Source: Amoebophrya sp. A120
Taxonomy: Eukaryota > Protista > Dinoflagellata
NCBI GenBank assembly: GCA_905178155.1
Contig: CAJINV010000022.1
Location: 310,001 to 374,000 of the forward strand
Length of the DNA: 64,000 bases
Reading direction: 5' to 3'
Below the pieces are notes generated by a model. The model did not search any database, was not told the DNA's origin, and saw only the letters and a program-made list of their open reading frames with translations. Position numbers and translations under genes: made by a program. Shown here piece after piece: positions 3,401 to 26,000 of this stretch (positions are counted from its first letter, which is position 1; each line of letters begins with the position of its first letter).

Positions 3401-6400
3401 GGCCTTCTGCCCTGACGCTTTGCTTGCTTTGCTTGAAGGCCCGCAGAGCGAGCCCCGGCGCCGGCAGATGCCCGGGCCTGAGGCCCCCCGCGAGGCCCGC
3501 CCGAACAGAAGCCCCGGGGGCCCCCCCGACCGAGGCCCCCCCCATTGGCCGGGCCGGGCGGGCCCTCGCTCCCTCTCCCGGGCTTTCTGCCCTGAGCCTT
3601 TGCTTGCTTTGCGTGAAGGCCCGCCAAGCAAGCCCCTGCGCCGGCCAATGCCCGAGCCTGAGGCCCTACCGGCAGCCCTGCGGCCCCCGGGGGGAAGGCC
3701 GCCCCGGAGGCCCCCTCTAAGGCCCCCCCTTTGGCTAGCCCGGAAGGGACCTCGCTCCCCCGGGCCTTCTGCCCTGGAGCTTTGCCTGCTTTGCTTGAAG
3801 GCCCGCCAAGCGAGCCCCGGCGCCGGCTTCTTTTGCGTAGTTGCTGGGCGGAGGGGCGCCAAAAGATATTTCTGCTTTTCTTTTGAGTTGGCACACGGCC
3901 AGAACGAAGCCCAACCACTTCGGCCCGCCCGTCCCTTGCCTTGGTGCGTTTTTACTCGGCCGCCGCCCCTCCATCGCCCGGCCCCCCCCATCGATCGTCA
4001 TCCCGCGGCTGACGCCTTCGATAGATTAGCGCGCGCATGATCGGGCGCAGCAACTGAAGTCCCCACGCCCCGGAGGTGTTCTGGGTGTAGAAATAGGGCC
4101 GGGCCACCACAGTACGAACGCAAAAGCCCGGCGAATGTCTGCACCACGACACTCACTTGCCCCATCGCCGGGGCCGCATGATCAGCGGGGCCGCTTCGCA
4201 GTGTTGTTAGGTAGTTTATCACGCACCGGAGACGGCGCCTCGACTTGCCTGAGCCTTTGGGTCGCCACATTTCCGCTCCGCTTCCGCTGTGCAGGTGTCA
4301 GAAGGCCTGTCGGCTTCTTACTTCAGAGCTGGCAGGCAGCTGCTCTGTGTGTACCCGAGGCGCCTTTCTGCTTTCTGTCTACAGCTGCTGCCCCTACAAC
4401 TTTATGTAGCGCGCGCACTGATCTCCTGTCGCGCTACTCTTCCTGAGCGCTACCCCTGCCCCGCCCTTCCTCCTTCCCAGGAAGCCCAGCCCAACAATCC
4501 TAATGATCATGCTTATGCAAAAAAATCAAGTTCAAGAAAGGGTCGCCCTTCAGGGCGACCCGTTTTCTTGTAAAATTAAAATCTGTATTGCATGACTAGC
4601 AAGAGGAGTCCAGTTTATGCCATGTGGAGAACGGAGAGGGCATTTCCATTTCTCATGCGGAATAGGCATCGGGAAGCCCTTCTGTGACGGTAGGCCATGA
4701 ATTACAGGCGTCATGGGTCATGATGCAGAGTATGCATTACAAACCTGGCAGCCTTCCAGACCCAGACATATTTGCAATGCATACGTCCTCTCCGACCGGC
4801 GCGATGGAACAGACTACGACCATTTCCCCCACCCGGACGGCCGCCTACGGGATTAAACGCGACGTAAAGCGTGTGAACCCGGTTGCGCACGAGCATGTGG
4901 AGGAGATCGAGAAGCTACTGTTAACGGTGTCGAGGGAATTCCCAACGATCGGCTACACGCAGGGAATGCACGAGGTACTGATGTTCAGTTCTTCTGCAAC
5001 TTCCACCAGATGAGAAGATGCTTTTCTTCATCTTTTCTTCCATCGTTGAGATTTTCCATAGTTCTCGTCCCAGGCGGTTGTCCGGACCACTGGAGAGTCA
5101 TGCATTTGATGTTCCATTCAGAGATGTACGTAGATTGGCGTAGTCTTGTCATGCAAAAGAACCTGCTGCATCATTCCCGAACAAAACACAACAAGGTCGC
5201 CGCCGTTCTGGTCTACCGCCATTCTTCCATGCACGCTCTCCCCGGTTTATGTATCAAAAACGTAGTTCTTGTGTTGTGTACGTAGGACAAATAGCATAAA
5301 CTTCGCTCGGAAGTAACTCAACTTCTTATGCTGACCAAGGTACAGAAAAGACAGTTGTCACGCGTGACGGCAATTATGAAAGAATAGTACTGACGAACAA
5401 GATACTTTGCGATGCATAAACCTCCCCCTTGGACGACTTCCGAACGCTGCTGAGTAACTGCGGCGATATATCCTGAGTAAAAACGTACCCACACCAGAGT
5501 TGCAATGCAGATTTGCAAAGACAGGAAGACTTGTAACGCGCATCCCCATGAGAGCCATTTCTAATCGTGTTTTGGAATTTGTGATGCTGTGAACAGGATG
5601 AGCAGGCGCATCTGTGATGCGGCTGCACTTGCTAACCTGCACTACACTGCATAGTGCAACTTGTCATGCGTGACTCACAAAAATCCTAGGTTTGTGTTGC
5701 AAAATCCCCATCTTGACTCTGGTGCGGGTACGTTTTTACTCAGGATACGATATGTGGCGGGACGGCATGCCGAAAATTCACGAGGCGGTGCTGATTGTGA
5801 ATAACCTGCTCCACAAGCACTTACCCAGACTCCACCATCACTGGTTCACGTCCTGTCAGCCAAAGGTGGACACGCTGTCTATGGCGTTCTCAAACGTTAC
5901 ATTTTCAACTGTTACATGAATTTGTGATGCAAGAATGGGAAAAGTGAAAGGGGGAAGGCGGCACCTGTAGCATTACAAATTTCGCACAGATTTAGGTGCG
6001 GTCTAGCCCTTCGCAAATTTGTCATGCGAAGCAGCTTAATCATGAGGATGATGATGGTGCTTTTGCATGACAAATTCATGTAACAGTTGAGAGTGTAACG
6101 CTTGAGAACCCCATACTGTCAATCCTGCCGAACGGGTTGTTTTATGCATAATTGTGAAAGTAGTACTATCGCACTTCTTGCATTACAAAATTGCTCTGCA
6201 TGAAAAAAGAAAATCTGGAGTTCTTTGTCATGCTACTTCACCTTGGGAAGCAGATTTATCATGCAGTACAACTAGTACGAGTGCGATACTTAACTTTTGC
6301 AATGCATACACCAACCCTTTTCGTCCACTGGTTTGGGTTTGACAACGCCTGTCACCACGTGGTGTCCTTTCTCGTGAAGGAGAAGTACCCGGCTTTCCTC

Positions 6401-9400
6401 GCGGTTGTGCTATGAAGGCCTCAGAAGGGAAATCCTCAAAGTGAAAATAGTTTGTAATGCAAAAAAACACTCCAGTTGAAGCGCCACTTCTAGGGGGCGC
6501 ATGACAAATTTCCCGGGCACTCAAAGCATGTCTGTCATGCAGGTTAAGGCAAAGGGGTGCCCTTCTCTCGTGCTAATCAACACTCCAATTCTTAACCCGT
6601 AGGAAGACAATAGCCGGCCTCCATTGCGTCCTCTGCAATACAGTCTTTTTTGCGTCGCATTTCATGCATCACAAATTTGAGGATTTCCATTCTGAGGCTG
6701 TCATATGTGCTAGGCACGTTTGAGTACTTGGCGAACTCCGCCGGGATTTTGGAGCGAGATTTCGAAGAGTCCTATCCAAGAAAAAAACGTTGTTAGTGTA
6801 AATTTGTGATGCGCAACATGCAAGATGATTGCGTCTGTCATGCTTGGCATGCATCGTAGGGTCCATTGAAGGGCATTTTCGCATACTATCTGCGCATGAC
6901 AGGTTTTTGCTGTCATGCCAGACAAATTTGTAATGCTGTTCCTCCAAAAAAGTTACACCTACAATGTTTTTTTCTTGGATAAGTCCATGATTTACTTCAG
7001 TAAGGAGATGCTGATCCGGTTCCAGGTGTCACGTATCCCTTGCAGAATCATCTTCGCTCGCACTGCATCGAAATTTGCAACGGCTAAACTGCACGATATT
7101 GTGAACAAATGCACATGCTCGTCATCATAGTACTTATCCGCATTTACAAATTTCGTGCGCGTGCGCGCGCAGGTGGTTTACTTTTGCAGCAGGATACTCC
7201 GGCAAGAAGACGTGAACAGCTACAACAAGATGCAGAGAGTGTATCACAGGAAAAAGTGTTAACGTCAACGAAACTTGTGATGCAGCAATGCATGATCACT
7301 AAACGAATAAACGTGCCAAATAAATTTGTCATGCATAGCATGCGTATTGGGCTACATTTGTGATGCATGGCTGCAATCTGTGAATAAAACCTTTAAAAAC
7401 GTTAACACTTTTTCTTGGGATAGATTGCTGCAGGAAATCATGGACCTGGCGCGGGGGAAGTACTTGGCGATTGCAAAAGAGGAGTTAAAATACAGTGTGG
7501 AACCCAACCGCGAAATTTCGCCGGCGCCGAGTGTCGCCCAGTACTCGGTGAATTCAAATTCGTTCGGAACAAGAGGAGGTGTAGGTCCTGGAGCCATGGC
7601 AAATGTGATCCCCCTTACGGAGCAAAATTTGTCCCAGCTACCGCTGAAGTCCAGCGTAGACACGACGCAGCCGGCTGCAGGTGCGCAATATGGATTGCAA
7701 ATGTGTCTGGGTCTGGAAACTTGTGATGCTGGGCTGTGAACAGACAATGCCCTGTAATGCACAGCAGAACATAATGAGAAATATGTGCTCGGCTATAGTG
7801 CTGCGCTTTCTGCGTGACAAGCTGCGTTTTCGCATGACAAGGACAAGGGTCTCTTGTTGGACACACATCACAAGTGTTTCTGTCATGCCAGACAAGCATG
7901 ATAAGGATAACCTTGTTGTATCCTTCCAGACCCAGACATATTTGCAGTTGATACGCAAGGAAGTGGCGCTAATCCACGAACCACCGGACCAGGTAGTGTT
8001 CCAGGACCAGGCTCTGCAGTACCATTAGAGCAGTCTTACCTCATCTCTCCCCAGCAACAGCGGGAGCAGCAACGAGAGCGGGACTTGCAGCAGACCCTGC
8101 AGCAACAGCGACAACTGCAGGAACTGCAGCACCGACAAGCCGAGTTGAGTTACCAGCAAAACCGCCAGGTGCAGATTTCCAACGAACGGCCGGAGGAACT
8201 GAGCCCGTTTTTGCAGATCGGCGGAGCCAGGTCGAGTTCCAGCTTTCAGCATATGCACCGCAAATATGTCTGGGTCTGGAAAACTGCAACGTTTGTCATG
8301 CACATTTTTTTTACATGGCCGATGACATGATCCAGGGATCATTATATTTGCAACGCATACAGCAGGATCTACCAGCACGGTTGCCGCAGCAGCCGGCCTC
8401 GAAGGGTGGAATGACAATGCCGGGGACGAGTGTGAACCTAGGTATATTTAAAAAGACGTACCTAATTTAAGTATTTTGATACTTCTGTGGTCAGCTGACA
8501 GTGCATTGCTCACTGCTCGCCTTCCATATTGTCATCAATGCTGCAGCACGACAAGAAAAGCAAAGCAAACTCCTTCAGGTGGAGCTCCACCCCAGCAACA
8601 CCCCCATCCGTCCTCCAACAGCGTCGCTGAGACCGGTAGTGTATGACAATGCACAACTCCCCCTCCCCCTCATTTGTATAGCATGAACGGCAATACAAGC
8701 ATCCGCAAGAATGTCGGTTTTGCATGACAAATTTGCACTGGATTGTAGTGCTCTTTGGGCTTCCAGGATTTGTCATGCAAACAGTGCTACAAGGCAGCAG
8801 CTGGATTTGGGATTTTGCATTACAAAGGAGTGGGAAGGGGGGTTGTGCACTTTCATATAGTGCGAAAGGAAGCTACTTGATCAAACCGAAAAACTCCACG
8901 GCCTCCCGGCCCCAAGCGGACCGGCAGTACTTGGAACAACAGGTTTACGGCACCAGAGGGACGACACCACAGTCCGTACACAACAATAACCCCACAACCT
9001 CTACTCCGAACCGCAATCCGTATGGCGCGTCTAATTCCTACGCCGACGAATTTAGTCAGGAGCAGTTACTGAACCAACGGTCGCCGTCTATCGCAGCGGG
9101 ATATTCCGTTACCAGCAACCCAGGCGTGGGCGTTAATATTTCTGCAACATCAATAAACAATCCGTCACATGGAGGCGCTGGCGGTCCTGCCACACCCTCG
9201 CAGCAGCTGCATCAAATGAACCTCATAAACACTGCCGCAAGCAACAGCCGGAACACCAATAATTATCCGTTTCACGCGGACGATAGGAGATCGGACTACA
9301 ATTTTGATACCAGGACGAACAAATCCGAAAATAACCACCCTGGGTCGCAGATTCAATCGCAATTGGAAACGCAGTTGCAGCGGGTGAGTGACGACAACAA

Positions 9401-11593
9401 TGAGAAGAGCCGGAAGATCGCGGACTTGCAAGAACAACTGGCCCAAATGAGGCAGCAGAAGGAATCCGAAGTCGTGCAGCGGCTCCGGAAGGAGAGCGAA
9501 CTGGCGACGAACGAGAAGGAAACGGCAGACGCGGTGAAAAGTAATGCAGAAATGGCCCGCGTCATTGAGGATCTGAACATGAGGGAGAAGGCACTGAAGC
9601 AAAAAATATCTACTTATCAAACTATAAAAATGTTAGCGGTAACGGAATTTGTGATGCAGTAACGCATCAGAAATAAACGGCCCAAATTTGTATTGCGTAG
9701 CATGTATGGAAAGCAAAATTTGTAATGAGTGACTGCCATCAGGGAAAACCGTTAAGGTTGACACTTTTTTGCTTGATGCTACTATGGAAAAGGACATAGA
9801 GCAACACCACCAGAACATGGCCGCTGTTGCAGAGGGCAGAGCTTTATCGAATGCAAAAATGTCTCGGTCTGGAATAGTGTAACTTGTCACGCTACATGTG
9901 GATCGTGGAAGCATTTGCGTTGCATGATTACCAAAAGAGGCCCGCTTTTGAACAAGTTTAGAGGCAGTTTCTCATGCAGGAGCGGCATGATAGGGATCTC
10001 ACAGAACCTGTCATACCAGGCCGTGCATGGCAGACCGCGTGTGTCATGGAAAACCTGCATGACAAACCTACCAATCTTCCAGTCCCAAACATTTTTGCAT
10101 TTGATAAGTTTCCCAGGCTAAAGGACCGGATATATCGGACTACGCAGGGGAAACGGAGACACTTATGCATTGCAAAAGTATCGTACTCGTATTGCAATCA
10201 TGCATTACAAATCTTTCTCTTAAGGTAAATCAGCATTACAAATTTTATCTCTCATGCTGAGGAAATTTGTAATGCATTTATACGAGTACGATACTTTTTC
10301 CCTGGATAACACTGGAAATGGTACGATACTCAATAAGTGGTTGTTTTCGAATATTGTGAATGTAACAGTAAGTCTTTGAGATTCGGATGATTTCCGGATG
10401 AGAATAAGAATAACTAAAGCGGTACAAGTTGTAATGCAAAAAAGCAAATATTAACGCAGGTGGAGCAATTCCTTCGTGAGTACGACGCCGGCTGCAAGGC
10501 GGACGAAAAAAGCACCGCAAAACTTCTCCCCGACAGGAGAAGTGTCCCGTATGCCATGCAGGTCGTAAAATGGACGACGGAACAGAAGCAATTCCATAGC
10601 AATGGCGTGTATGCATCGCAAAAGTATCGTACTCGTCATGAAAATCGCATAGAATACTAAACACTTGTTTTTTCAAAAGGACAAGCGGAACTTGTAATGC
10701 GGAATCAAGTAAGGAAAAAGCAATCGACATACGAATGCGATACCTTTGCAGACTTGATAGCGTAAGCAGGTTTCACCGGCACCTGCTGAGTTTAGCACAG
10801 GAACGGATTATGGAGCTTTTGCCCTTCGAGGAGCAGGTAGAGGTGCGCACGGTCGAAATCGCGGAAACCAACAGCAAACTGGCCCAAAGCTTTGAGAAAA
10901 TCCGGTTCCTGACGAACAAACTGGAGGAAAAGAAGATGGAATACAGCGGGGCGAGCAACGTCACGACGCTACCGAGGGAAGGTACCAGTAGTTACAACAA
11001 TAGCTGTGTTTCATTTGTGATGCGCTTTTCCGCTTACTGACGAGTTGTGTGATGCAAAAACCGCATATCATGTGCCGTCGGATCAAAAGAACGTGAACGA
11101 GGACTACGACACCAAAAAAAAACAGATGCCGTCCGTCTCACGGAGGAAAATCAGAATCTTCAAAACCGTATAGCGTCCCTACAAGAGGAAAACGCGAGGC
11201 TCGCAGATGTGGAAGTGGAGAACGTGCAGTTACAACAGGAATATGAATTGCAAAAGTATCGCACTCGTATAAATGCATTACAAATTTTCTCAGCATGAGA
11301 TAGAAATGTAATGCGGATTCACCGTAACAAAAAAGATTTGTAATGCATGATTGCAATACGAGTACGATGCTTTTGCACAGGATAAGGAACTCCTCCGGTT
11401 TAAGCCCTACCCCGGGGCGGTTGGCGGGAGCACCACCAGCGCCAGTGGGGCGACCGCGGGTAACTACACGAATAACGCCGCGAACAGCTCCCCCACTACT
11501 TACACCACTTACCACGCCACGCCGTCTGTGGCGTATCACCTCATTACCGGCGGGGGCGGGTCGGTCTACCTGTCGGCGGGCCCGCGGGGGTGA
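462..11593 (+). CDS. TBC (Rab-GAP) domain protein with low-complexity linker and C-terminal coiled coil; 22 exons (16 TIR introns, 5 GT-AG introns)
   Basis: Manual splicing gives an open frame from ATG 462 to TGA 11593. Exons: 462-521, 4789-4974, 5196-5247, 5424-5468, 5753-5879, 6121-6142, 6314-6410, 6711-6772, 6987-7025, 7173-7241, 7428-7688, 7959-8251, 8365-8441, 8579-8641, 8863-9614, 9784-9844, 10112-10163, 10314-10320, 10460-10609, 10765-10981, 11126-11241, 11390-11593. TBC-type motifs: IKRDVKR, PTIGYTQGMHEVAAVL, LLHKHLPRLHHH, GLFTLF, AFLAVVLG, DFEES. Confidence 0.82.
620..945. repeat. ~12-bp C-tract minisatellite GGCCCCCC(C)TAA/TGA/TCA; G-quadruplex-prone on the minus strand
   Basis: Repeated ggccccccctaa/ggcccccctga units. 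The same unit recurs at 2495-2590. Confidence 0.85.
1370..3830. repeat. ~200-bp GC-rich satellite, about 13 units, largely alternating between two subtypes
   Basis: Core CTTCTGCCCTGAAGCTTTGCTTGCTTTGC..GAAGGCC..CCAAGCGAGCCCCGGCGCCGG near 1465, 1672, 1866, 2065, 2250, 2445, 2673, 2856, 3028, 3248, 3451, 3632 and 3812. Subtypes are marked by CTCGCTCCCTCGGG versus CTCGTGTCTT. Confidence 0.9.
4975..5195 (+). other. Canonical GT-AG intron
   Basis: GAG|GTACTG...ACAAG|GTC joins GMHE|VAAVL, the TBC motif. Confidence 0.75.
5248..5418. mobile_element. Degenerate TIR introner (B-like)
   Basis: TATGTATC...GATGCATA. Flanks CGGTT/AACCT are decayed, but removing element+5 nt gives ALPGSPLDDF in frame. Confidence 0.6.
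5469..5747. mobile_element. TIR introner family E
   Basis: TATCCTGAGTAAAAACGTACCC/GGGTACGTTTTTACTCAGGATA; direct repeat CGATA; frame restored (CGDMWR). Confidence 0.9.
5880..6115. mobile_element. TIR introner family F
   Basis: TATGGCGTTCTCAAACGTTACA/TGTAACGCTTGAGAACCCCATA; direct repeat CTGTC. Confidence 0.9.
6143..6308. mobile_element. Degenerate TIR introner family B
   Basis: TATGCATA...TTGCAATGCATA. Flanks TGTTT/CACCA match 0/5, yet removing element+5 nt gives NGLF|TLFVHW. Confidence 0.7.
6411..6705. mobile_element. TIR introner family G
   Basis: TATGAAGGCCTCAGAAGGGAAATCCTCAAA/TTTGAGGATTTCCATTCTGAGGCTGTCATA; direct repeat TGTGC. Confidence 0.9.
6773..6981. mobile_element. TIR introner family H
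   Basis: TATCCAAGAAAAAAA/TTTTTTTCTTGGATA; direct repeat AGTCC. Confidence 0.9.
7026..7172 (+). other. Canonical GT-AG intron with CAGGTG repeated at both junctions
   Basis: CAG|GTG...CAG|GTG; frame continues RFQ|VVYF. Confidence 0.65.
7242..7422. mobile_element. TIR introner family C
   Basis: TATCACAGGAAAAAGTGTTAACG/CGTTAACACTTTTTCTTGGGATA; flanks GAGTG/GATTG. Confidence 0.88.
7689..7953. mobile_element. TIR introner family A
   Basis: TIR core GTCTGGGTCTGGAA/TTCCAGACCCAGAC; direct repeat CGCAA. Confidence 0.9.
8252..8359. mobile_element. Short (108 bp) internally deleted family A introner
   Basis: TATGCACCGCAAATAT/ATATTTGCAACGCATA; direct repeat CAGCA; frame restored. Confidence 0.8.
8442..8578 (+). 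other. Canonical GT-AG intron
   Basis: TAG|GTATA...TCAG|GT; frame maintained. Confidence 0.6.
8642..8857. mobile_element. TIR introner family I
   Basis: TATGACAATGCACAAC/GTTGTGCACTTTCATA; direct repeat TAGTG. Confidence 0.9.
9615..9778. mobile_element. TIR introner family C (divergent)
   Basis: TATCAA...TTGATG; direct repeat CTACT; joins KIST|MEKD. Confidence 0.82.
9845..10106. mobile_element. TIR introner family A
   Basis: Family A TIRs; flanks AGCTT/AGTTT. Confidence 0.87.
10164..10308. mobile_element. TIR introner family B
   Basis: TIR core AAAAGTATCGTACTCGTA/TACGAGTACGATACTTTT; direct repeat ACACT. Confidence 0.9.
10321..10459 (+). other. Canonical GT-AG intron
   Basis: ATG|GTACG...ACGCAG|GTG joins LEM|VEQF. 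Confidence 0.6.
10610..10759. mobile_element. TIR introner family B
   Basis: Family B TIRs; flanks GCGTG/GCGTA. Confidence 0.85.
10982..11125 (+). other. Canonical GT-AG intron
   Basis: GAAG|GTACC...AAACAG|AT joins PRE|DAVRL. Confidence 0.65.
11242..11384. mobile_element. TIR introner family B
   Basis: Family B TIRs; direct repeat AGGAA. Confidence 0.9.
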
Positions 11594-12529
11594 AAAATCT
11601 TGTTGTGCTGGCCCTGGCAAGAGTCTCGCCAATAAGAAATTGAATACTTTTTTCAAACAAATTCAAATGCCTTTTAACGTGACACGACTCACGATGATGT
11701 ATCAGAAATACCTACTTACTTTTTACGCTTGAGTTGTGCCTAAAGAAGCCAGCACGACATGCATGAATTATCATCGCGCAGACAAATGCTTCGCATGCCA
11801 GATCTAGACAATGACAACCATAAGTGCCACTGACGCTTAACCTTTAGGCATAAAATTAAAAATAAATAGAATGCAGGCAATAAAGCCAATCATAGCAATT
11901 TTCGTTTCAACTAATAGCATCACCAGCGCTAGCGCAGAAAAATGTCAAAATAGCAAAGAAAGTATGAACTACTTTACCAATTACGATTCAAACGTTTCCT
12001 TAGAAGCCACGAGGTGGGCAGCAACTCAAGCATCCTCGCGCACGACAGCAGCGGAATTTTATGTACAATTAGCGTGCTGCGATGATTATCCACCGATGTG
12101 CTTGATCTAACACTTCTAACAGATTTTTCAGATTTTTTGATGTACACAATGTTTGTATAGGCACGAAGAAAATAAGTACAGCAGACTACAGCACCATGCG
12201 GCAGTAGACACTGCGAATCTACTTCACTGCTTCTGGCATCGGCGTCGTGCTGGTTCTTCCGAGTAATATGATCTGCTTCTCGACGAAAAGCGTTTATCTT
12301 TTTTTTTCTTTGGGCTGCTCGACAGCGACACCGGTACAGAAGCGCTGGATCAACAAGCCCACGCGGCTCACAGTCACCACGGCCGGAACAAAAATTTACG
12401 TCTGTCGTGCTCCTTCTAAAGTTACCTTTATATACTTCTTCTACCGCTTGCGCATAGATCGTTTTTGGCCAGCACAAACATTACACCTTGTAGGACCGTT
12501 TGGTTCTGTCTCGCTCTTTACACTTCAAA

Positions 12530-15500
12530 ATGGATGCCCCACCAGGCCAAGAACTTCCAGACACTTTGGTGCCCCCAGCACCTCCTGCTCCACCGTCTTC
12601 CCCAGGAGGCTACCGTGGTCTCCTCGGCGTGGGCGCGACCTTGCTAAAAAGGTTGAAATTCCTTGCCAAAGTGAAGGCGCTCCTGCTTTCTAACAAGGAG
12701 ATGATTGCGAACAAAGCAGGATCTTTGGCAGCATTGCCGTTTTTGCAACCGCATCAAGGGCGACAACTTTTGGGAGACCGCTCTAGTAGAACAAGCACTT
12801 GCGAATCAACATCATCTTCTTGTTCTGGAAGCAGCAGTCTCGGAGCGGCGGCTCGCCAGTCCTTGCCCAGACCTCAGACCCCTTGCGATCGACTCCTGCC
12901 CGACTCCGAGGCCGCTCGTGAAACAAAATTGCCAACTTGCTGCACAGCTTCAACGTGCCCACTCTGTGGCGCAGCGTGGTACTACAACTCTTCTGCAGAT
13001 AAAGATCTTGCTGGGGGTAAGTCATCTTGCTCAATGTTGAGCACTACTTCTACACCAGCAGCAGAACAGCCGAACCCCGACGTGCCGCCCTGGGTTTGGG
13101 AGCACATTCACTCAGACTTTTTCCTGCGCTGCCCGCCCAGGGAAAGTGACGAGGAGAGAGGGGATTCTTTCGCCAGTAACTCGCATTCTCTCATCCTGCC
13201 GAGGAAGAGAAGCAACCCGAATCTCGGCAGTGGAGGTTCCGAAAGTACAACTACTAGTCGTGACACAACAACTAGTATCTCCCCTCCTTACGCGAGAGTG
13301 AACCCAAATCCTCCCAGAACCGCCACAGACCCCGATCAGGATGAAGATTTTGACAAACATGTCGCGAGGAAGCTGATCGACTTTCTGAACCACGAGCTAG
13401 CCCTTGACGCGGTTTCGCAGCAAATGAACGACCTAGCTTACGAAACGAAAAAGCAGAGAAACTTGATGACGTGGCTACACGAGCAGATTGACAATGTTTG
13501 GGAAGAGAGGGGATTGGTCTTTCAGAACCTGCGCGAGAACTTCATGCACAGCGGTACTGTTGACCCCGACAGCGAGACGGCGCTGACGGTAAGGATATCT
13601 AAAGGAAAAATCCCCCCTCCCCATACTGAAAAGGTGTATTTTTGGAAATTTGTGATGCTGATTTGTGGTCACAAATCGTGTCTTCTGCAAGAAGGCAAAC
13701 GCAGAAGGCCGCAAGCATTATCCCGGCGGTTTGTAATGCTGCTGGACCTACGTCATGGACTTTTGTCATTCTGAGCGCGTAGGCCAAAACCTCCCCACTC
13801 CGGTTTGATATAGGCCTGCAGTCCTCTACAGCAAGACAAGGCTGATTTGTGTACGCAAATCCAGCAACAGAAATTTCGTTTTGATATGGGGTGGGAGGGA
13901 TTTTTCCCTTTGATACAGGACCGACTTGGCTTTGTCGCGGGACAAGGTGAAGCGGATACAAGCCGGATTGGACCCGTCGTATATCCAGAACGCAATCCGG
14001 AAATTTTTGTTTATCAAAAGGAAAAATCCCCCCTCCCCATATCGAAAACGAAATTTGTGATGCTGGATTTGAGCACATATCAGATTTGCCTTGCTGAAGA
14101 GGACTGCAGGCCCACATCAAGCCTGAGTAGATGTAGAGAGGTTTTGGCCTAGGCGCTTAGCATGAGAAACGTCTGCGCTGTAGGCCAAACAGCATCTGCA
14201 TCACAAACCGCCTGCATAATGCGGCGGAGCCTGTGGAGTTGCCTTCTTGCAAGACAGAGATCATTTGTGGTCGCAAATCAGCATTGCAAATTTTCTGAAG
14301 CGTACCTTTTCGATATGGGGAGGGGGGATTTTTCCCCGGGATATTGTTCCGGGAGAAATTTCTGAAACGGCGGGGAAGTAGTAGTAGCTTCAGAAATAGG
14401 CATCGGATGGTCGACGTCAGCACGGGAGGTGGACGGGGCAGCAGCAGTCGTGCAGCGTCTCTTGATTTGGCGAAATTTAACTCCAACTCTTTCGCCAATC
14501 AGGTCTCTAACAGAAACGACGGTGGCTTGCAATTACTGACAACTTCCAGACTTTTCAAGCAAAACCGAGACAAAGTGCAGGAACGGTTAATCAGAGACCA
14601 ACCGCGGCCCGTCCCGGTTGTTTTGAAAAAGGGAGTTTACCAGTGCGGGCATGATTACGGGTACATGAGTGTATGCAATACAAATTTCCCGTACATGTAC
14701 AAGATGCATCACAAATTTCGCCAATTTGGAGCGTCAAACTTGTCATGCTAAACTAGGATCGAGGCCAAGTTTTGTCATGCAGAGACCGCATGTGTACGTG
14801 TACAGGAAATTTACTGTGGATAGAGCAACGAGCAAGTTTACGAACTGATGTCCTACAAGTACGAGGGTGCCGTCCATTCCGAATTGCGAAGCGCTCCGAA
14901 GAACACCCACCACCAGTGGCTCAGCCCGGTGGTGCATGAGACGGACGTTTTGCCCTACCAGCTGTTTGGATATGGGAGTGCACAACCCCCCTCCCACTCA
15001 TATGTAATGCGAAACACCCAATCCACCTCTTGCTTTCAGGCTCTGTTTGCATGACAAATTTTGGAACCTAAAACAGTACTACAATCTGTGTGCAGATTTG
15101 TCATGCGAAAGGCCCATTTGTCCCGTTTCTTGTGTTGCTACGCATTCACCTCAAATGAGGGGGAGAGGGAGTTGTGCACTTTTATATTGGAAACAAGGCT
15201 CGGAAGTGGATGCTGCTGCGAAAGGATTGGACCTTGGAAGATATTCAAATGCCAGACGCAGATGAAGTTGTAGACGAGAGAATTATAGCGGCGGATGTTG
15301 GTGAACGTGAAGAGGACGCCTTGTTCGCCGGCGAAACTAGGGAAGAAGAGGAAACAGTACACCACGAGACCGGCGCGAAAGTGGATCAGAATCCCGCAGA
15401 TCCTCGTGCTGGGCGAACCAACAGGCATAAAGCCGCCTACCACTTTACCTACCCAATAGCTTTTCGCAACGAAGAGGAACGACAAACAGCTGTGATGCAC

Positions 15501-17119
15501 AACCGAAGGACCACATCAATAAGGCAAAGCCGTGTCACATCAACACCAACATCATCTTCACCAAGCGCCGCAGTGTCAACTCGAGATGATTCGTCCCGTG
15601 GTGGTAGTGCCACCAGTGGCACATCATCAACGACAAACTCAAGTTCAACTTCTAACCTCCGCGAAGATGATTACAGTACAACTCCCGTCGGTGACCACGC
15701 AGAGGAACAGCCAGCAGCGATGTTTGAATCTCTCATGGAGGTTCACGTCGACGCCGGTGGTATTTTCGCCGAGAGTATCAAATGTAAAAACGTCTGGGTC
15801 TGGAAGAGTGCATGTATGTCATGCTGGTCTGGCATGAATCTTAAATCTGTCATGCACGTTGCCCAAGAGCCGCACTTCTCTGTCATGCGGAGACGCAATT
15901 TGTCATGCAGAATAGGCAACACCTACAAGCTCAGAAATTTCTCATGCTGAGCCAGCACTTCTGGCCTCCTCATGCTGCGCCACTCAGCATCACAAGTTTC
16001 CAGACCCAGACACTTTTGCATTTGATAGAGAGACTCGAAAACATGCTGGACCTGCGGGAGCGGTTTTTCGACCGAATGGTCCGGACAAACAACGCAGATC
16101 ACTGGACGCTATGCATTGCAAAAGTTAAAGTATCGTACTAATGGAAAAAATCGCATGACAAATGTCCTCAGCATGAGAGGACACGGAATTTGTAGTGCGG
16201 ATTTGCCTTGAAGACCAGATTTGTAATGCGGAATTGCAATTAGTGCGATCTTTTGCACAGGATAGACGCCCTTTTTTCGCACCTGGAGGATGAGCTTTCC
16301 GTTTGAACACCGACTGTCCTCGTTTTCCAAAAAGCCAGTGGTGGATTTCGATTCGGTAGAGGATTTCGCGAGGGAGAATGGGCTGCTTGTTTATTCCGAA
16401 GGTCCTCGTGAAGGTCGTCGATCATCTTCTCAACAAGACCACCGAAACAAAAATCATGCGGGACAGAATCAGAAACAACAAAGAGCAACTCCAGGCGGAA
16501 CAAGAAAATTTTCACCAGAACAAGAGCAACACCAGCTTCTATCAGACTCGCAAAAGGCCTTCCTCGAGGATAAGATCGACACCACGACCCGCGGGCAGCA
16601 CCACGCCGGGAGTTTAGACTATGCATTGCAAAAGTATCGTACTAGTATAAATCGCATGACAAATTTCCTCGGAATGGAAAATGGAATTTGTCATGCTGAT
16701 TTACCTTGCGAACCAGATTTGTCATGCATATCTGCGATTAGTACGAGTGCGATGCTTTTGCATTTGATACAGACGACAAGGACGTAATCCGGAACGGGAG
16801 AAATATGGAATACTTGGTCGCCGAATCCAAAACCGTCTTCACGATCATCACTTGCCAGGTCCAGAACGAACCGGCGCGGCTCCAGAACCTGGAAAGAGCG
16901 AACTTTTTCCGGTTGGGCGGACAGTTTTTTGAGCGGGAACGGGATGCGGCGGTAGAGAACAACTACTGGGGCTGTGGGTACAATGTTTGCACCCGGATGA
17001 AAAACGACGTGAACGACGGGAGTGTCAAAACGTTGAACCCAAACAATGGTGTGACGAAGCGCAAGTTGGGGCTGGGGCTGAACGGGGGGATGATGGAACA
17101 AGTAGAGGTGGATATTTGA
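12530..17119 (+). CDS. Hypothetical protein, 8 exons separated by 7 TIR introns
   Basis: Open frame MDAPPGQ...EQVEVDI* after removing the elements at 13596, 14012, 14672, 14971, 15776, 16110 and 16620, each plus 5 nt. No domain recognised. Confidence 0.75.
13596..13915 (+). mobile_element. TIR introner family D, orientation 1
   Basis: TATC..AAGGAAAAATCCC..CCCCATA TIR; flanks AAGGA/CAGGA. Confidence 0.88.
14012..14343 (-). mobile_element. TIR introner family D, orientation 2
   Basis: Direct repeat TTGTT. Interior is the reverse complement of the 13596 copy. Confidence 0.88.
14672..14822. mobile_element. TIR introner family J
   Basis: AAATTTCCCGTACATGTACA/TGTACGTGTACAGGAAATTT with TAT..ATA ends; flanks GAGTG/GAGCA. 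Confidence 0.8.
14971..15186. mobile_element. TIR introner family I, opposite orientation to the 8642 copy
   Basis: Direct repeat TTGGA; joins QLFG|NKAR. Confidence 0.9.
15776..16027. mobile_element. TIR introner family A
   Basis: Direct repeat GAGAG. Interior closely matches 39825-40085. Confidence 0.9.
16110..16264. mobile_element. TIR introner family B
   Basis: Family B TIRs; direct repeat GACGC. Confidence 0.88.
16620..16769. mobile_element. TIR introner family B
   Basis: Family B TIRs; flanks TAGAC/CAGAC. Confidence 0.88.
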
Positions 17120-17689
17120 AGACGATCATGAAGATACGGGTTTCTTTGTCTTCTTGTTCTTTGCCTTTCCACTTTATTTTTGTGCGAGAACGAGTAGTTG
17201 GACGCGGGCGTGGGCTGAGGTATTTCGCGTAGAAGATTCTCTGACAACTTCAACTTGCTCATCTATGTCTGTTTCAAATAAACTTTGTCGTGTCAGTGCC
17301 AGCTACTAGGCGATTAGTTTGCTTACTTACTCGCCGGTGGCGAGGTTTTAGTTTTTGGATTTTTCCTGCTGTATGCTGTAACTCATCTTCTCAGACGAAC
17401 CGAAATAGTCCGGCAAAGTCGTTCGCGTGCGTGTGGCTGTCTGATGATTTCACCTGTTGGCGTCATTGTCTGAGAAAGGTACTTTGATGACGGCTGCGGA
17501 CCTTTGACGCAACTTTGGGAATACAGAATCACACTGAAATTAATCTTTTTAGATTACGCCATAATCATGATCGAGGCTCGTTTTATTTATCGTTTGTGTT
17601 CCCGTATTAAGTTCCGTCAAAAGCTTAAGACTCTTCTGTAGCAACATGCCGGGCGTCTTCGTGTCTTTAGCTTTATGGGTTCTCTAACA

Positions 17690-19480
17690 AAAATATATTG
17701 AGTGGCGGCACCGGGGGGAGGAATTCGCGGCCGAATTCACCAAGTGGATCCGCAAAAAGATCGCCAAAACCGGCAAGGTCGGGGATGACTTCACGAATTT
17801 GCCGACGGCGGGGCAGGTGGATCACAAGGCGAAGAGCGGGAAAACGCGCCAGATACTGGGGGGCGGGCCCCAAGCGAATGAGCCCGGAGAGAGCCGGCGG
17901 GCGGTTTTGTTTTCGCAGCAAACTACTGCCGCGCGGCCGGGCTGCTCGGATCGATGTACCGCCGACGGCCTCCGGCTTGGCGGGCGCTTTCACCGCCCTG
18001 CCCCGAAACCGCTGCGAAGGCCGCGGGGCCGCTACCTAGGCATCCGGTAGGCGCCCCGATGGGCCGCGGCCGAGCAAACAGCCCCGCGGCCGGGGGTTCG
18101 GCTAGTCTGTCTGTCCGGCCCGCGCACGCTGCCCCCCGGCCTACAGGGGGCGGCGCCCCATTGCCCCCGCGCCCCGCGGCGCATTGTGTGCTTGCCCCGT
18201 GGACGAAATCCGGGGGGGCCGCCTGGGCGTACGCAGCTGGCGCGCCCCCCCGCCTTTGCGCCTTGCCTGGCTGCCTCGCTCAATTAAAGGCGCGGGCCAC
18301 CGCCTGCAGCCGAGTCGCGAGCGTGGCGCGCGGTGCGTGCCGGCCAAGATCGGCGGAAGCGAAGGGCCTGCGGGGCGGTCGGCGGGCGCGCCCCGGCCGG
18401 CGGGCCTTCGCGCTTGCCTTTGGGGCGCTTGTTGTGCGTGGCCGGAGGGCTGGGCTTTGTGGGCGATTGTAGTACTGCGGCCGTCGAGAGTAATGTCGCC
18501 GATTTTATGGCGATGCATGCCCTCCCGGCTACCTTTAGCGGAGGCGGCGAGCGTCTGCATCGGTTCGCGCGATGTACGACCTAAAGCCGACTAATACCTT
18601 CCCGGAACCTTTCGCCTCGCTTACCCAGGCCGATGCGAATTACCGGACTACGACGGGAGGGCGCACCCTTGCAGACCGCAGCCCCTCCAACAAGATTGCG
18701 GCGCAGTATCCGCAGCGGGCCGCCCTTCCATGAATCGCCCGCGCAGAGCGGGGCCGGGGCGGCTTCCGCCGCGAACTTGCCCCAGTAGAATGGGAGCAAC
18801 TGCAACAAGGCGCGGCGCAAATGGCGGGGCGGTTGATAACCCTCGGCGCCCGGCCTGCGGACTACCAGCGCCCCGCATTGCGGCGCCCCGTGCCGTGTGT
18901 GGCGCTGCCTGTTGGGCCGCTGTGCCTGCCTGTTTCCCGGCAATGGCCCGGGCCGGGCGGGCCGATAAAGCGCGCACGGTGGCGCAGCCCGCCATCGCGT
19001 ATCTGCGTGCGTGGGCGCCCGCCGCTTGGGAGGGTAGGCAGGTTCCTGCCCCCGTAAGCAATCGGCCCACTGCTTAGGCATGCGTGGCCCGTGTCAGGAG
19101 TGCCGACTCCTTCGGCCAGCCTGGCACGCATCATCGAGCCGCCCGGCCGCCCCTCGCTCCCCGTACCTAGCTGGCGCGCGTCGCTTGGCGGGGTAGTGTC
19201 GCCGCAGGGGCAGGCCATGCATGCGCCGATCGATGCTTGGGTGTCTGTGTGTTGTGGCGATTCATTGGCCTGGCCGCGCGCGGCACCCCACCGGCCCGCC
19301 GCGCTTTCATTTTCATGCGTGTGCCAACCTTTGCACACCTGCCAAGTAAGATGCTTGGCCCCTGCTGGGCAAATAGGCTGCTAGCTGACAACGGCTGCCC
19401 GGTTGCCATTGCCCGTGCAGATGCGTCATTATGTCGACCGCTACCGGAAGATGTTCTGTTTGATGCGAATGCATGTTGTG
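17690..19480. other. GC-rich intergenic island, probably a decayed mobile element or pseudogene
   Basis: Abrupt rise in GC content relative to the flanks. No long credible ORF, but a protein-like remnant (YIEWRHRGEEFAAEFTKWIRKKIAK) at its left edge. Confidence 0.4.
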
Positions 19481-19770
19481 GCTTCGCTTTCAGGGTTAAT
19501 TAAAGGGTTTGCTTAGGGCTCCTAGCTTGATTCTCAGTACTTATTTTCTCTCCACCTTCGCGCCCGAATGGCAAGACCGGGAAAGCATTCACCTCCTAAC
19601 TTCCGAAACAAATGGAGATGACGAAGCTGGAGTCCTGAAACAGGTCGAGGCTCAAGTACTTTGAGCTTTTTGTAAATGTGGTCCGCCGACTCTCGTTTCT
19701 CTGTCCTTTAGGAAACTATAACCTTTTTGAAGTACTGAATATTTACGCAAGAAGCACTTCGCGCACAAAG

Positions 19771-21922
19771 ATGAGGCTGCGACAAGCACAAAAGACGGAA
19801 GGTCGTCTTTACTCCCAAGCTCCATTACCCCCGTTTATTCCTGGGTCTCGGAAGATATTTTGCTCTTCTGCAGCGCCCGTCTTTTTTGTTCTCGCGCTTT
19901 CAGCTGCCCTTTTCGATGGCATTCATGATTTCGAAAGCGGGAGCAGGTTCGAGACCGGAAAAAATCGCACCAATGGGATCGCAAAGAACACGCCAAAAAT
20001 TATCTTCACACACGGCATTCAACTGCAACTGCGAAAAAAAAGAACAGGTCGGCGCGGAGGATTATTGCCGCAAGGGTTAGCAAGTTCTTCTCGTGATACT
20101 AGAAGTAAAACGGGAGCGACTATAGGTACGTCCTCTCCTGGCGGAGTTGGTGCATCCTCCTCCTCGTCCTCTTCCTCTTCATCCTCCGGCCTGAATGTCT
20201 ACCCGTACAAGTACAGCTCCGGCCCGGGACCCCCGCCAACTGCGAGGACAAATACGTCTTTATCCCAGAGCGACTTTGTTCAACAGTCGTACCAGTACGG
20301 TGGTTCAAGTAGCAGTAGCAGTTATAGCCCGGCATCAAACCACCTCCAGTCTCAAACGACGCTTAGTGGAGTGGAAACCGAAACCACGCCGAGTAGCAGT
20401 TCAACGTCGAAGGGCAGTTGTGGCACTTCTAGTTCTAGCGCCCAGAAGGATAAGGCTAATATGGATTTTTACCAGGACCACCCTCTATCTTCTAACCCTG
20501 GAGGTTCTCTTCATCTGGATGACCATCGTCGTCAATGTCAACAAGGAGCAAAGAGTCCTCGAAAAAGTCCAGCGGCGGGCCGGATGCCGCTGAGCAACCC
20601 GGTTTTCGTGAATCCGCCCCCGGGCGGTGAAAAGGTTGATCTGAATCTGTCTCGCCGCACTTCATCTTCGCGGGCAGAAGAGGTAGAACGGGCTCCATCG
20701 TCAGTAGTTGACGTTCACCGACCGAGTCCTCGACCCGGCAGTTTATTTCGGCAGTCGCTTTCACAACATTCGAGTCAAGCGGAAAGTTTTTCTCCACAGA
20801 CGCAGGCGGGAAAACTGCCCAACAAGCCTGCGACTGCTAGTAGAACAATAAAGCATCCTTTCGTCGTGTTCTCGAAAGGCCTTCGCTTCATCGCAGTCCA
20901 ACACATTCTGCAGGACAACCCGCGGGCCAGTTGTGAGTTGAAAACTGTTGATGGGTTTGAGGGGAAAATGACACCTTTACTGTACTTGCTGATGATGTAT
21001 CGGAGATACAAGAACGACCTGCTCAGTGAATCTTTTCTGGAGGAAAGCGAAAGCAATGCGGGGAACAGGAAAAATCGTTTTGCAACTACATCATCAGCTT
21101 CGGAACCAGCAGTCCCGCGGTCGTGGTGCTCTCCTTCGGCGAATGGTGTTGCAGCGGGAGATGACCGCAACATGGGTGAGGATGGCCACGGGGCGGCCAA
21201 TAGCAGAGCTCGAGCAGCGGGGAATGCTAATGTTGTCCCCGAAGTTAAAAAAAGGCTTCCTCAGTTGCTTTCAAGGGTTGCGCGTCAGCAGCTGTCGCGC
21301 ATCAGCTGCGTTTTCTCCTGCAACCTGGCATGACCAAGAACCACCTGTCGAAGTGGATGCCACTGGTCGTTCTCGTTGTACCCGTCCGCAGCTAGAACAG
21401 GTTAAAGGGAAGTGCTATTTTCCGAGCCATAACGTGGCTCGGCGTGCTCGTGGTCGTTGTGAAGATGAAGATCCCCAGCAAGATGAACTACATCGCGACC
21501 ACCCGATAATTTTTGGCACTAGCGCGCCATCTGGTGCTGGTCGTGGGCTTTCCGCCGGTGGACTGTCTTCTTCACAGCCTCTTTTCACGCCCATCAGCGA
21601 CGAGTTTACCACTGAAGACGAAGTTCTCGCGATTGCTTCTCTCCTCCTGCAGTACTGCAGCTCGCGGCGCATGCGGATCAGTTCCATTTTCAGTGCGGCG
21701 CCCACTCCGTATTCTGATTCATCATCCGCCCGGGAGCGGGGTGCGAATGTTGGTGAGTTGCTCAGAGTTGTAGGTCCTTCGTCGTCGCCGTCGTCGTCCA
21801 GTGCTAAGGTCGCAGAGAAGTCGTGTTCTCCACGACCGTCTTCCAGCATCAGTCAGGCCGACATGGAGATGGCTTGGCTGAAGACGCTGGTCAATTTGTT
21901 GAACAAAAGTGACCGGTTTGTG
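19771..21922 (+). pseudogene. 5' part of a large Ser-rich gene with degenerate ankyrin-like motifs; frameshift at A7 21247-21253, then interrupted by an insertion
   Basis: ORFs 19678-21333 and 21026-22015 overlap across an A7 run. Motifs GKMTPLLYLL and LAIASLLLQY. The frame ends at a 34-bp segment that recurs at 22189 and 23006. Confidence 0.5.
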
Positions 21923-23005
21923 TATCCAAACCCACGCGCTTCTGGTGTTTTGCATGACAAATTTGGATGGCGACCGATCGGGAGCGTTCTGATCGGGAAT
22001 CTGGATAGAGGGTAGAACTAGAGTCGGCCCTCATAGATTTTAGGCTATCGGGATCCCTTCTGATGGCCCTCATAGATTAGCTATCGGGATCCCTTCTTAG
22101 GCTATCCGTGTCGGGCCTCCATGTCCGTGTCGGGAATTACTGCAATCAGGAACAAATTGTGCTGAAAAATCAGGAAGGTGAATCAGGTGGTCAATTTGTT
22201 GAACAAAAGTGACCGGTTTGTGGAAGACTATGTGACTCCCGAGGCAAACTCCCGACTATTCCCGCCTCGCCGAGCCCCTCGGAGTTAGATTTGGACAGCA
22301 ATTTGAGCAGCGCGCCGAACAGTCGCGAGCAGTCCATGATGTCGGTGTTGAGTGGAGGAGGTGGCTATTACACCTGCATTACCCACTGTCGTGTGGTTTG
22401 CACCAGTGTGCAGCCCGGGCTCTTGCATCGCCGTGTTGAACAACACCGACGTATGTGTAGACCTCGCAGGTTTTCCAGCGGCAACGGCTTGTCCACCAGT
22501 AGCTTCATGATTGATCAAGAGGAAGACCGCTTTCATTTTGCACTCAGAAAACTCTAGCCCTGCTATCGTAGATGTTGTAAGTGGGACGTGGATCTCCTGA
22601 TGAATGTCTTCACGAAGACCTGCTGCTTCGCGTTGATGCACGGGGTACGTCATGATCATGCTACATATACTGTATGCGCTGTCGTGGATCGAGATCAGCA
22701 GCTAGATCATGCTCCTCCCTCGAGGTGGGCACTCAGCACTTCTCACGGATGATTGATGGTGTGCGTCTTCTTGCTCTCACAGCAGCAACATAACAACGTA
22801 CTCGTAGTCAAGAACAAACCTACTTGCTTTTTCGAAAAGCACCGCTACTTCGGCTCTCGTTGTTTCGAAGTAAGACCTCAAGATCTTCATACTCACATCA
22901 AGAATACAAAGAATAACAATATCACGTAAGTAAAATACTAAGTAACATAACAAGTAGAAGCATCATCTCGTCCTACGGCTAGTATATTACCTTAGCACTT
23001 CTCAT
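21923..23005. repeat. Patchwork insertion made of copies of nearby sequence
   Basis: 22116-22187 resembles 29415-29485; 22188-22222 equals 21888-21922; 22236-22380 resembles 25176-25323; 22404-23005 resembles 30310-30917. Confidence 0.85.
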
Positions 23006-23058
23006 TTTGTTGAACAAAAGTGACCGGTTTGTGGAAGAAATTGTGAACAAAGTGAAAT

Positions 23059-26000
23059 GTGAACTTCGAAGTTGAGGCCGCTAATGACATGGACGAAGAC
23101 GATGGCGCGGCGCACCAGGAAGAAGAGGATTGTCGTGAAAAGCAGCAGCGAAGCAGGCAAAACAATGGTGGGGAAGTGGAAATCACACCACGCAGCCCTC
23201 TTCAACACAGCTCTGCTATCTCCTACGCCTGGTCGAGTCCGAAGCTCGCCGCGTTGTTGCTGGCGTATGGAGCGGATTTTATCAGGGTCGTTCAACTTCA
23301 AGCACCCTGCTCCGACGATTTTGCTGCAGTTTCGAAAGACTGCAGCACAGCTGTATCGGGGGAGCAGGAGCAGGACAAGACTTGCGATCATGCGGATCTA
23401 CTTGGAAGAGCAGAGCAGCCTCATTCCGTCACGACAACTGCTGAGCAACCACGTTCCAGCGTGGACGCCCTTCAAATTTTGCGATTCGTGCAGCACCACA
23501 GGACGACTGCAATCGAGTTACTGAATGAGCTGCAGAAGATCTTCACTCCGATTGCCGCATCAGATGGAGCCGAAGATGGAATTAAGAGCCAGCTGGAAAA
23601 CTACAAAACCGAAAAGCAGCAAATTTTAGAAACCAAAAAGCCAGAAAACATTGTCACCCAAGCGATCCTCCTCGGCACGAAAATATTAGCCGTCAACGAG
23701 AGTCAGGACAAGGAATTCCGGAAATCCAGACCATACGAGGGCCGCTTAGTCCCCGACACCCTCTCCTCGGAAATGGCCCGGGTGCGGAGAATGGAAGCAG
23801 CGTCCGATAGAGCGGCGAGGAAGCGGGAGAAGAGTTTGTTTGACGATAGTAGCAGCAGTGAAGAACAAAGTGAGGACTCGGAGCTTGACGAGTTTTCAAA
23901 CTTCTGCAGTGCAATGCCTGCAGTCGTGTCTACTGGAAGAACACTGAGGGACATCAAGGCTAATCGACGGGCTGCCGCTGCGCGGTTCAATCGTGGAAAG
24001 TACTGGTCTCCGGTAGAGGCTGAAGCTGAACCCGATGCGCTGCATCATCAAACCGGCAGTGTTGAAGGAGGACCTTCTGTTGTAAATAACTTGATGGCGT
24101 CGTGCACCACAGGAACTACCGCCGTTGCGCACTACAACTACATCACGTGGGGAGAAGATGAAGACGAAGAAAAATTGAGCAGGAATTACACAAGATATAA
24201 TCGCTCGACCGAGGTCGGTGGCCAAGACCGGCTCTTGGAGGCACCCGCCGCTGCTACACAAGTAGATGCTGATCCACTGCAGGCACCCCCACCACCGGCA
24301 TCGTATCTGAGCAAGATTGGCAAGCGAGGCCGTGCTGCCCAGCACCAGCAGCCACATAGTACCCCTCGCGCACGACCAGTCAGGCTGAACATCATCTCCC
24401 CCTCCACGTGTGGGATGTGTGGCTGTCAGGTGGGCGGATGCGGAGGTGCCAAGCCGGGAGATGACAGCGATCCAACAAGCGGCGCCAATAAAGTTCTTGC
24501 CAAAGACGAGCAGCAAGCCTGTTCCACGGGGAAGAACGAAAACAATAAACACTACTTCATCAATGCGAATTACTTGAACTTTGTGAAGAAAATGCGGGAA
24601 ATGCACGGGGCAAATTGGAAGCCGGTTTTGACAGAACAAGAGGCGCTGCAGCAAGGCTTGCTACACGCGATTCCCGCAGCTGCCGCAGCGAGAATCACCA
24701 CCTATTTCGATCAGGAAGTTGTTGCACACTCACAGCAGGGTGGATTTTCGAACGGGCGGACGTCTGACAGTACCTGTGGTTCCTACCTTGCGTCGGCGTC
24801 GAAAACATCAATCCCGTCTCCGAGCCCGAAAACCATGCAGGTTTTGATTATCCCGCCGCCACCGGAGCAGGTGTTCCAAAGTAGAGAAAATTCTGGCGAG
24901 GAGGCGGAGTGGTCGTCGCCTGGTGTGGAGGTTCAGAAGGACTTTTCACATTTCGGCGACGCATCTTCACATTCAGTCTCTAGTTCAAGACTACACAAAG
25001 ACGGTGAGCTCGAGCAGCAGAAAGCAGAACCATGGTCCTGCAGGCCCACTTCGGGCGACCTGGATTTGTTCGAGGCTGCTCCAACAGCAGCAGATAACTG
25101 CGCGCTGCGGTCTTCTTCACATTTGCAAGTTGATACGACCAGCAGCTACCCCTATGATCTCTACTCCCCGCTCCTCTCCCGAGGCAAACTGCCGACGATT
25201 CCCGCCTCGCCCAGCCCCTCGGAGTTAGATTTGGACAGCAATTCGAGCAGCGCGCCGAACAGTCGTGAGCAGTCCATGATGTCGGTGTTGAGTGGGCGGG
25301 GAGGCGGCTATTACACCTGCATTGATAGTGCCAGAGGTGGTGGTGGCACAACCGAGGCTAGTGGTGTTGCCGGTGCGGCTGAATTATCGCCTTCTGCGTT
25401 GGAAATCGATTTGTTTGAGGAGCCACTCTTCACGCCTCTCGAGGAGGATGCCAGTGCTCGTGCTGCGCAGCAGGGTTGTGTGGAGGAACAAGATGAACTA
25501 CTAGGGTCCTCGACGGTAGATCAACATCAAGTCGAAAGCCGGTCGAACTCGCACGAGAGCACGGTGCCGAGCCTTCCTGACCTTCTCACCAGAACTTCTA
25601 CCAGTCGACAACCTTGCACTCGAGAGGGATCTTCGCCGGAGCAGCAAGAAACTTCCGCTCCAGCAGCCACACAGCCAACGACGAGTGGTCTTCTGCTAGA
25701 AGACAATGACGATTTCTGGACATCAACGACGGCATCCAGCTCCTCGAACACCGCGGCCTCATCTTCCCTCACCGAGCAGCAGAAGCAGGACCTGTTCGCG
25801 AAGCTGACCGGCGCGAACCAGAAAGTCCTCAGCGGTGTGATCAGTACGAACTTGTTCGAAGATATCCAGGAAAAAACACACATACCCATCCACTTTTTGC
25901 ATGACAAACGCCGCAACTCATGCATGTTTTGCATGACAAATTGGATGGGGATGGGTGCGGGTGTTTTTTCCTGGATAGAAGATGACAGCGAGGACGACCA

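Follow-up and report, generated by a model that had tools for sequence, protein, structure and literature searches.

Introners of the same family were found in both directions inside + strand genes of Amoebophrya sp. A120, and copies in both orientations were missing from contigs that likely represent spliced RNA. The excised intron likely has the form N-TAT...ATA-NNNN, cut 1 nt before TAT and 4 nt after ATA, in a register that we infer from six junctions to be fixed and transcript-directed. Terminal variants spared U+2, A+3 and A-7, and stem mismatches showed no excess of G-U, which together indicate that a polar signal sits inside a palindrome. Coordinates throughout are those of the window, the whole stretch of 64,000 nt that was analysed.

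Introners of the window

When the window was compared with itself, repeats of 110-330 bp were found by the dozen, with TAT at the 5' end, ATA at the 3' end, terminal inverted repeats (TIRs) and 5-bp direct repeats on both sides. The curated set consisted of 49 elements (10,700 bp in total); three partial elements were kept out of it, one with its start at about 522 and two with their ends at about 4783 and 5418. Perfect 5-mer duplications flanked 36 of the 49. Column counts over 48 and 49 elements gave ends composed of TAT, approximately 7 variable nt and an A run, arranged as inverted repeats. The two ends were mismatched at 107 of 245 comparisons in TIR positions 4-8 and at only 43 of 294 in core positions 9-14. 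Positions 4-8 formed, in all elements, a variable stretch between the conserved triplet and the conserved core.

This end motif agrees with the published description of A120 introners (TAT, approximately 7 variable nt, A run, inverted repeats, direct repeats of 3-5 nt), and the elements are therefore of a known kind; the portions of that paper covered here also share with our set the lack of fixed terminal dinucleotides and lengths of approximately 240 nt (PMC7789003). TAT ends, a direct repeat of 3-5 nt at the exon border and non-canonical removal from RNA, the marks of A120-type introners, were all found, the last of them in runs that are RNA by inference. The elements also had the marks of MITEs, namely short length, terminal repeats, target duplication, dispersed copies and empty orthologous sites. 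No transposase family was detected among 17 sequences scanned, and a search of Rfam gave no match. The GT/GC...AG termini of U2 spliceosomal introns do not describe these elements: GT-AG was possible in 1 of 49, and any of four known pairs (including GA-AG and AT-AC) in 5 of 49 in any compatible register. Drift to GT or AG in older copies was not significant (G+1 in 6 of 13 versus 7 of 36, p = 0.08; AG in 2 versus 2).

Elements were nearly missing from 17000-37000 and 51000-59000, indicating that they cluster by gene. Uninterrupted frames were seen at 53288-56398, with VWA and alpha-kinase domains, and at 57225-58949, with a SET domain. A GC-rich, tandem-like repeat region occupies 600-3900, and a duplicated gene pair, approximately 83-85% identical, lies in 30300-36000.

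Orientation of copies within families

The sequence-only reading of this DNA had claimed that the same families occur in both directions inside + strand genes, which was confirmed for D, I and A and extended to B. Family D is forward at 13596-13915 and 44717-45041 and reversed at 14012-14343 and 62189-62510. Family I is at 8642-8857 on the + strand and opposite at 14971-15186; family A is at 38376-38641 in its majority direction (+) and at 39058-39325 in its minority direction (-), the latter copy ending in ATG. All of these limits had been read exactly. Interiors were aligned after 35 nt had been cut off each end. For the D copies at 13596 and 14012 the identity was 0.74 (score 244) as reverse complements and 0.55 (score 44) in the forward comparison; the corresponding values were 0.70 (118) and 0.53 (8) for family I and 0.75 (198) and 0.48 (-13) for the A copies at 38376 and 39058. 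The best of 135 shuffles was 0.55. Family B was also two-way, with 12 versus 4 copies in the window.

The majority direction of their own family was taken by 34 of 44 window copies (P = 0.017). This bias was not repeated in family A of a relative's genome, where the counts relative to the predicted host strand were 44 to 43, and no orientation bias is therefore claimed. Introners of Polarella and Aureococcus are described, in the part of the source used here, as canonical introns in either orientation (10.1101/2020.10.14.339549); thus, two-way insertion alone does not exclude polar signals.

Removal in both orientations

The frame had been described as restorable, and in three genes excision of each element plus 5 nt opened + strand frames of 1004 codons (12494-17116), 1833 codons (36701-45323) and 614 codons (59557-63071). 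The same genes gave at most 405, 610 and 253 codons, respectively, when the element plus 0, 1, 3, 4, 6 or 7 nt was excised. Excision of the element plus 2 or plus 8 nt likewise preserves the frame, and it was the contigs that settled the choice in favor of element plus 5. Two paralogues had 755 and 510 codons once element plus 5 nt was taken out. The A copies at 38376-38641 and 39058-39325 were covered by the frame test only. At 25863-25977, a lone element of 115 bp is in frame and stop-free inside a frame of 1239 codons, and it could be translatable if retained.

Contigs of four runs (X1-X4) lacked copies of either direction, in line with the earlier claim that introners are removed in both orientations; these runs are one sample, available as contigs only, and their RNA status was inferred. 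In 41400-51000, a joint of element length plus 5 was found for 13 of 13 elements; for 12 it was present in all four runs, and two of the 13 had been recognized solely via their joints. Joint 44711-45042, likewise present in all four runs, bridged the forward D copy at 44717-45041. Every directly read joint skipped element plus 5 nt, so that the message retains a single target copy. One joint of 15, 41723-43994, was seen in X4 only (depth 2.9, one side of 22 nt); it links two family A copies and was rejected as a repeat artefact.

Record 2 of X1, a contig of 3448 nt, corresponds to 12474-17532 minus seven elements, each with 5 nt, and had no mismatch to the window among the matches listed. It contains the + strand host frame at 12494-17116, the first exon of which gave no Pfam match. 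The forward D copy at 13596-13915 (flanks AAGGA/CAGGA, inferred intron 13595-13919) was found absent by length arithmetic, the 90-nt piece between the two D copies being assigned by length with an exact fit. The contig resumed at 14344 behind the reversed D copy at 14012-14343 (flanks TTGTT/TTGTT, inferred intron 14011-14347) and at 15187 behind the I copy at 14971-15186. At the B-like element 14672-14822 (+, majority direction; flanks GAGTG/GAGCA) the piece stopped at 14670, which puts the cut directly after the fourth position of the 5-mer, and the gap of 139 nt was consistent. Record 1 of X1 resumed at 7954, 8858 and 11385, directly behind the reversed A copy at 7689-7953 (-, minority direction), the I copy at 8642-8857 and a B copy; the piece starting at 7954 had 1208 nt ahead of it. 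The gaps of this record fit with three GT-AG introns also out, one pair of which (GTA...CAG) was picked from 8 candidates.

Contigs of this kind would also arise if they were rearranged DNA, with the elements cut out at the DNA level during a life stage that is transcribed, like the internal eliminated sequences of ciliates. Terminal repeats, TA-containing ends and the single target copy left behind are in keeping with such excision, and the kinds of the runs were guessed, with one DNA-like run only. That run, X5, keeps the elements, since its contigs enter them by 26-35 nt from unique exon sequence (one run, among the matches listed) and no graph branch occurs at the boundaries. X1-X4 also skipped the canonical GT-AG intron at 47113-47272 (+; joint 47107-47268, with GT..AG at the cut +5) and had zero depth at intergenic 45573-45893, and on these grounds they were taken as RNA. 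Moreover, a symmetric double-stranded substrate gives no ground for a register directed by the transcript. DNA excision is accordingly regarded as very improbable.

Raw RNA reads were few, 145 from run X9 and 4 from run X10, and uninformative, almost all of them being partial and placed within repeats. At 6608, inside the family F element 6411-6705, 40 X9 reads had a loose end immediately before this position; the loose end resembles a template-switch adapter, which we take to mark the 5' ends of cDNA lying within a copy of family F, and the reads probably come from another locus or strain. The decayed element at 46710-46992, which starts with TAC, was covered by an unspliced X1 contig (46680-47022, depth 10.8, versus 76.4 for the joint), which may represent retention, precursor or DNA.

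Register of the cut

The register can be read only where the two flanking 5-mers differ, and six such junctions were available. Four or five left bases were kept at the F element 44361-44670 (+; CGAAC/CGAGC; joint 44359-44675, 4 of 4 runs), at two B copies in the minority direction, 47326-47489 (-; joint 47324-47494) and 49053-49234 (-; joint 49051-49239), and at the decayed singleton 50455-50658 (no strand assigned; joint 50453-50663; duplication alike at 1 of 5 bases). Three or four were kept at the B copy 49655-49832 (+, majority direction, a weaker assignment with 11 of 15 pairs; GGAAG/GACAC; joint 49652-49836), and four at 14672. Four left bases is the sole value consistent with all six junctions; its upper bound comes from two of them, both B in majority orientation, with 14672 read from the end of a piece. 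The value of 4 was also compatible with each of the seven joints that had perfect 5-mers and were slidable or wider. The reversed B copies at 47326 and 49053 exclude the mirror value of 1, indicating that the register follows the transcript and not the element.

The direct repeat does not serve as the signal, because the duplication of 50455 is so little alike and because at 49053 a better repeat, 15 nt farther downstream, was ignored. Among the joints read directly, five had diverged 5-mers; in these, 11 of 25 flanking positions differed, whereas 0 of 30 bases of the terminal triplets deviated, although this comparison is rough. For 44361 and 16620, the empty site of the relative carries the left 5-mer copy, and the changed base thus lies inside the inferred intron. 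A family B element at 6143-6308 is flanked by 5-mers without a common base (TGTTT/CACCA), and its excision plus 5 nt is in frame. At non-canonical sites of A120, T is second in all 9 predominant ones and the border is called variable; the published data, in the part covered, hint at the present register with four nucleotides upstream and T second (PMC7789003).

Terminal bases, hairpin and internal motif

The sequence-only reading had placed the signal in the symmetric ends and had stated that it is not a polar splice signal. The first part stands; the second does not, since the cut lies 1 nt from one end and 4 nt from the other and the terminal variants follow the transcript. All 14 variants found in terminal triplets (5 in the window, 9 in the relative) were at +4 (5), -6 (2) or -5 (7), and U+2, A+3 and A-7 were invariant across them. 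The five window variants, at +4 (2), -6 (1) and -5 (2), are a partly biased set, as early search patterns fixed the middle base. All nine variants of the relative repeated the window pattern, with a chance of approximately 0.002 under symmetry if the strand calls are right; host strand was predicted for 4 by threshold and for 5 by eye (expectation written first), the calls at L001 and L061 being weak.

With one change permitted at any position, the strand-blind finder picked up 37 of the 49 window elements and no extra one, and in the relative it gave 238 distinct elements at 139 loci, with host strand predicted for 145. On the window the strand predictor was right for 35, left 2 uncalled and was wrong for 0, in a benchmark that overlaps its training set. 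Bases +1, -1 and -2 were unconstrained in both window and relative. Among the canonical introns examined, 4 of 5 begin with GTA and so have the same bases at +2 and +3.

A stem was predicted in 38 of 49 elements, and structure may therefore matter. However, G-U did not exceed A-C among stem mismatches (76 versus 71 in the window, 104 versus 131 in the relative), which gives no support for selection on an RNA hairpin in the transcribed direction, and sense and antisense folding were alike (p = 0.14). The context of A-7 was poor with respect to the U2-pairing motif, U being present at -9 in 20 of 48 window elements and 82 of 145 in the relative.

The same cis code could be read by proteins other than the spliceosome, an endonuclease and ligase or back-splicing to a circle, as has been proposed for Euglena; this is the main alternative to a spliceosome. 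The architectures match, with 3 nt + CAG...CTG + 5 nt in the Euglena account as far as covered and 1 nt + TAT...ATA + 4 nt here (PMC12501133), and the lack of G+1 or AG, the failure to find U1 and the predicted stems all fit. Against this, the expected G-U excess is missing, and the decayed element at 50455 was excised exactly although its terminal pairs were not predicted. The protected U+2 and A+3 are also canonical donor bases. Furthermore, the expected pairing partner of the protected U+2 is the tolerant -5, and that of the protected A-7 is the tolerant +4, so that protection does not track base pairs. We consider excision of the Euglena type unlikely, with an appreciable chance of being correct.

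A motif present on both strands had been offered as another possible signal, and TTTGTNATGC might in this way recruit a splicing factor. In its favor, 74 of its 82 exact copies lie inside 48 elements that cover 16% of the window, and sense copies are somewhat above antisense (91 versus 63). The motif had no copy within 2 mismatches in 50455-50658 and none within 1 mismatch in the elements at 46710 and 49655, and since all three were cut out, it is not required. Of 72 intervals between copies, 24 measured 31-33 bp, a spacing that suits a DNA-binding transposase. Recruitment by TTTGTNATGC is hardly probable. The motif is shared across families; its first copy often lies approximately 31 or 40-43 bp inside an element, counted from one end, and further copies follow every 31-33 bp, and from this placement it is likely a transposase binding site. 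An exact copy was also seen within the canonical intron 10982-11125.

Insertion sites in a related genome and neighboring genes

Empty sites with a single 5-mer were found in the relative at 43760, 44160, 44361, 44717, 14971, 15776, 16110 and 16620. The orthologous genes at loci L065 (empty at 14971) and L069 (empty at 44361 and 44717) have exon identities of approximately 88-95% in their best blocks, share 0 of 8 checked window insertions and carry their own insertions from related families. One insertion of the relative lies approximately 14 nt from the window site at 16620. Judged from these sequence comparisons, introner turnover is rapid and strain-specific.

The only match of exon 60402-61034 was a protein of Amoebophrya sp. 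A25, 53% identical. The last gene, once joined, aligned to the A25 protein with no indel across the reversed D copy at 62189-62510 (-; site gap-free against homologue P0001) and the reversed A copy at 61424, and for the D copy this alignment supports removal. Among the tandem paralogues at 45942-48088 and 48573-51908, the first is empty (one TGCTC, 46636-46640) where the second has the element at 50076. At one common position each paralogue carries an element (46710 and 50455, respectively), and the sequences of these two have ceased to align to any other copy. In the gene at 4200-11590, motifs of the 5' part resemble a TBC (Rab-GAP) domain; two pieces of this gene were scanned with no Pfam match.

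Discussion

The mechanism that we propose begins with a putative TIR transposase that would insert copies in either direction with a 5-bp duplication. Because TAT/ATA is palindromic, either orientation would supply U+2, A+3 and A-7, the inferred signal. A relaxed spliceosome is the reading that we consider somewhat probable: N/UA would act as donor without G+1, A-7 would be the branch point and the 3' cut would be placed by distance with no AG, while the hairpin is predicted merely to assist in bringing the ends together. An A that never varies and keeps the same short spacing to the 3' cut suggests a branch point and a ruler.

G+1 and a terminal AG are normally required in the second splicing step. 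Their absence here, the weak branch context and the failure to find U1 in A120 count against a spliceosome; U2, U4, U5, U6 and most spliceosomal proteins are reported as present in A120 (PMC7789003). A branch point fixed at -8 has been described in Entamoeba invadens (10.1101/2022.06.08.495308), and in Fritillaria transposon-derived non-canonical introns are removed by the organism's own spliceosome (PMC11282704). For the more specific statement, that the spliceosome of Amoebophrya has no need for G+1 or AG and that U+2, A+3, A-7 and a ruler define the intron, we hold the chances to be evenly balanced.

The elements themselves are already known, as are two-way introners with canonical sites in Polarella and Aureococcus. 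In the portions covered, the A120 paper describes the border as variable or unknown; it puts forward a hairpin and gives neither a fixed register nor a protected A-7 (PMC7789003). Its main text uses 'orientation' of genes (4 uses), and 'strand' is absent from the text of the supplement, whose figure images S19-S25 may show more (PMC7789003). The Polarella and Aureococcus introners are likewise terminal-repeat elements that form introns in either orientation (10.1101/2020.10.14.339549; PMC10228655, a review). They differ in that GT, GC or GA and AG are either brought along by the element or recruited, so that only suitable targets can be used, as the covered part of the source has it (10.1101/2020.10.14.339549), whereas in the Amoebophrya window any 5-mer target appears to be tolerated. 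The introns of Fritillaria borealis have in common a transposon origin, non-GT-AG ends and the status of majority class; in the covered parts of these reports they differ in having preferred AG-AC and AG-AT ends, a retained U1 and removal shown to be spliceosomal, which here is a proposal (PMC11282704, PMC13326754).

The closest analogue is the code of the nonconventional introns of Euglena. These probably descend from MITEs too, and they likewise have palindromic triplets, spacers that are fixed but unequal, terminal bases free to vary, junctions that can slide and GT-AG introns alongside (PMC12501133). Their code, thought to be read by machinery other than the spliceosome, differs in its triplets and spacers (CAG...CTG with 3 and 5 nt, versus TAT...ATA with 1 and 4 nt); pairing is required there by experiment, whereas selection on pairing was not seen here, and the purine rule of the Euglena acceptor exon was not evident in our set (PMC12501133, in the part covered). 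In the parts of the open literature that were searched, we met no account of introns removed in both orientations without canonical sites, of a single register set by the direction of the transcript or of three protected bases.

How the non-canonical introns that are the majority in Amoebophrya are removed is an open question in the literature covered, and the register and the three bases make it testable. The register rule would also give unambiguous intron borders for the annotation of such genomes. If the proposed code is true, any insertion, at any 5-mer and in either direction, would be removed scarlessly, which would explain the tens of thousands of introners within a single genome. A relaxed spliceosome would then be an extreme natural loosening of specificity; otherwise, a second lineage would have converged on the Euglena design.
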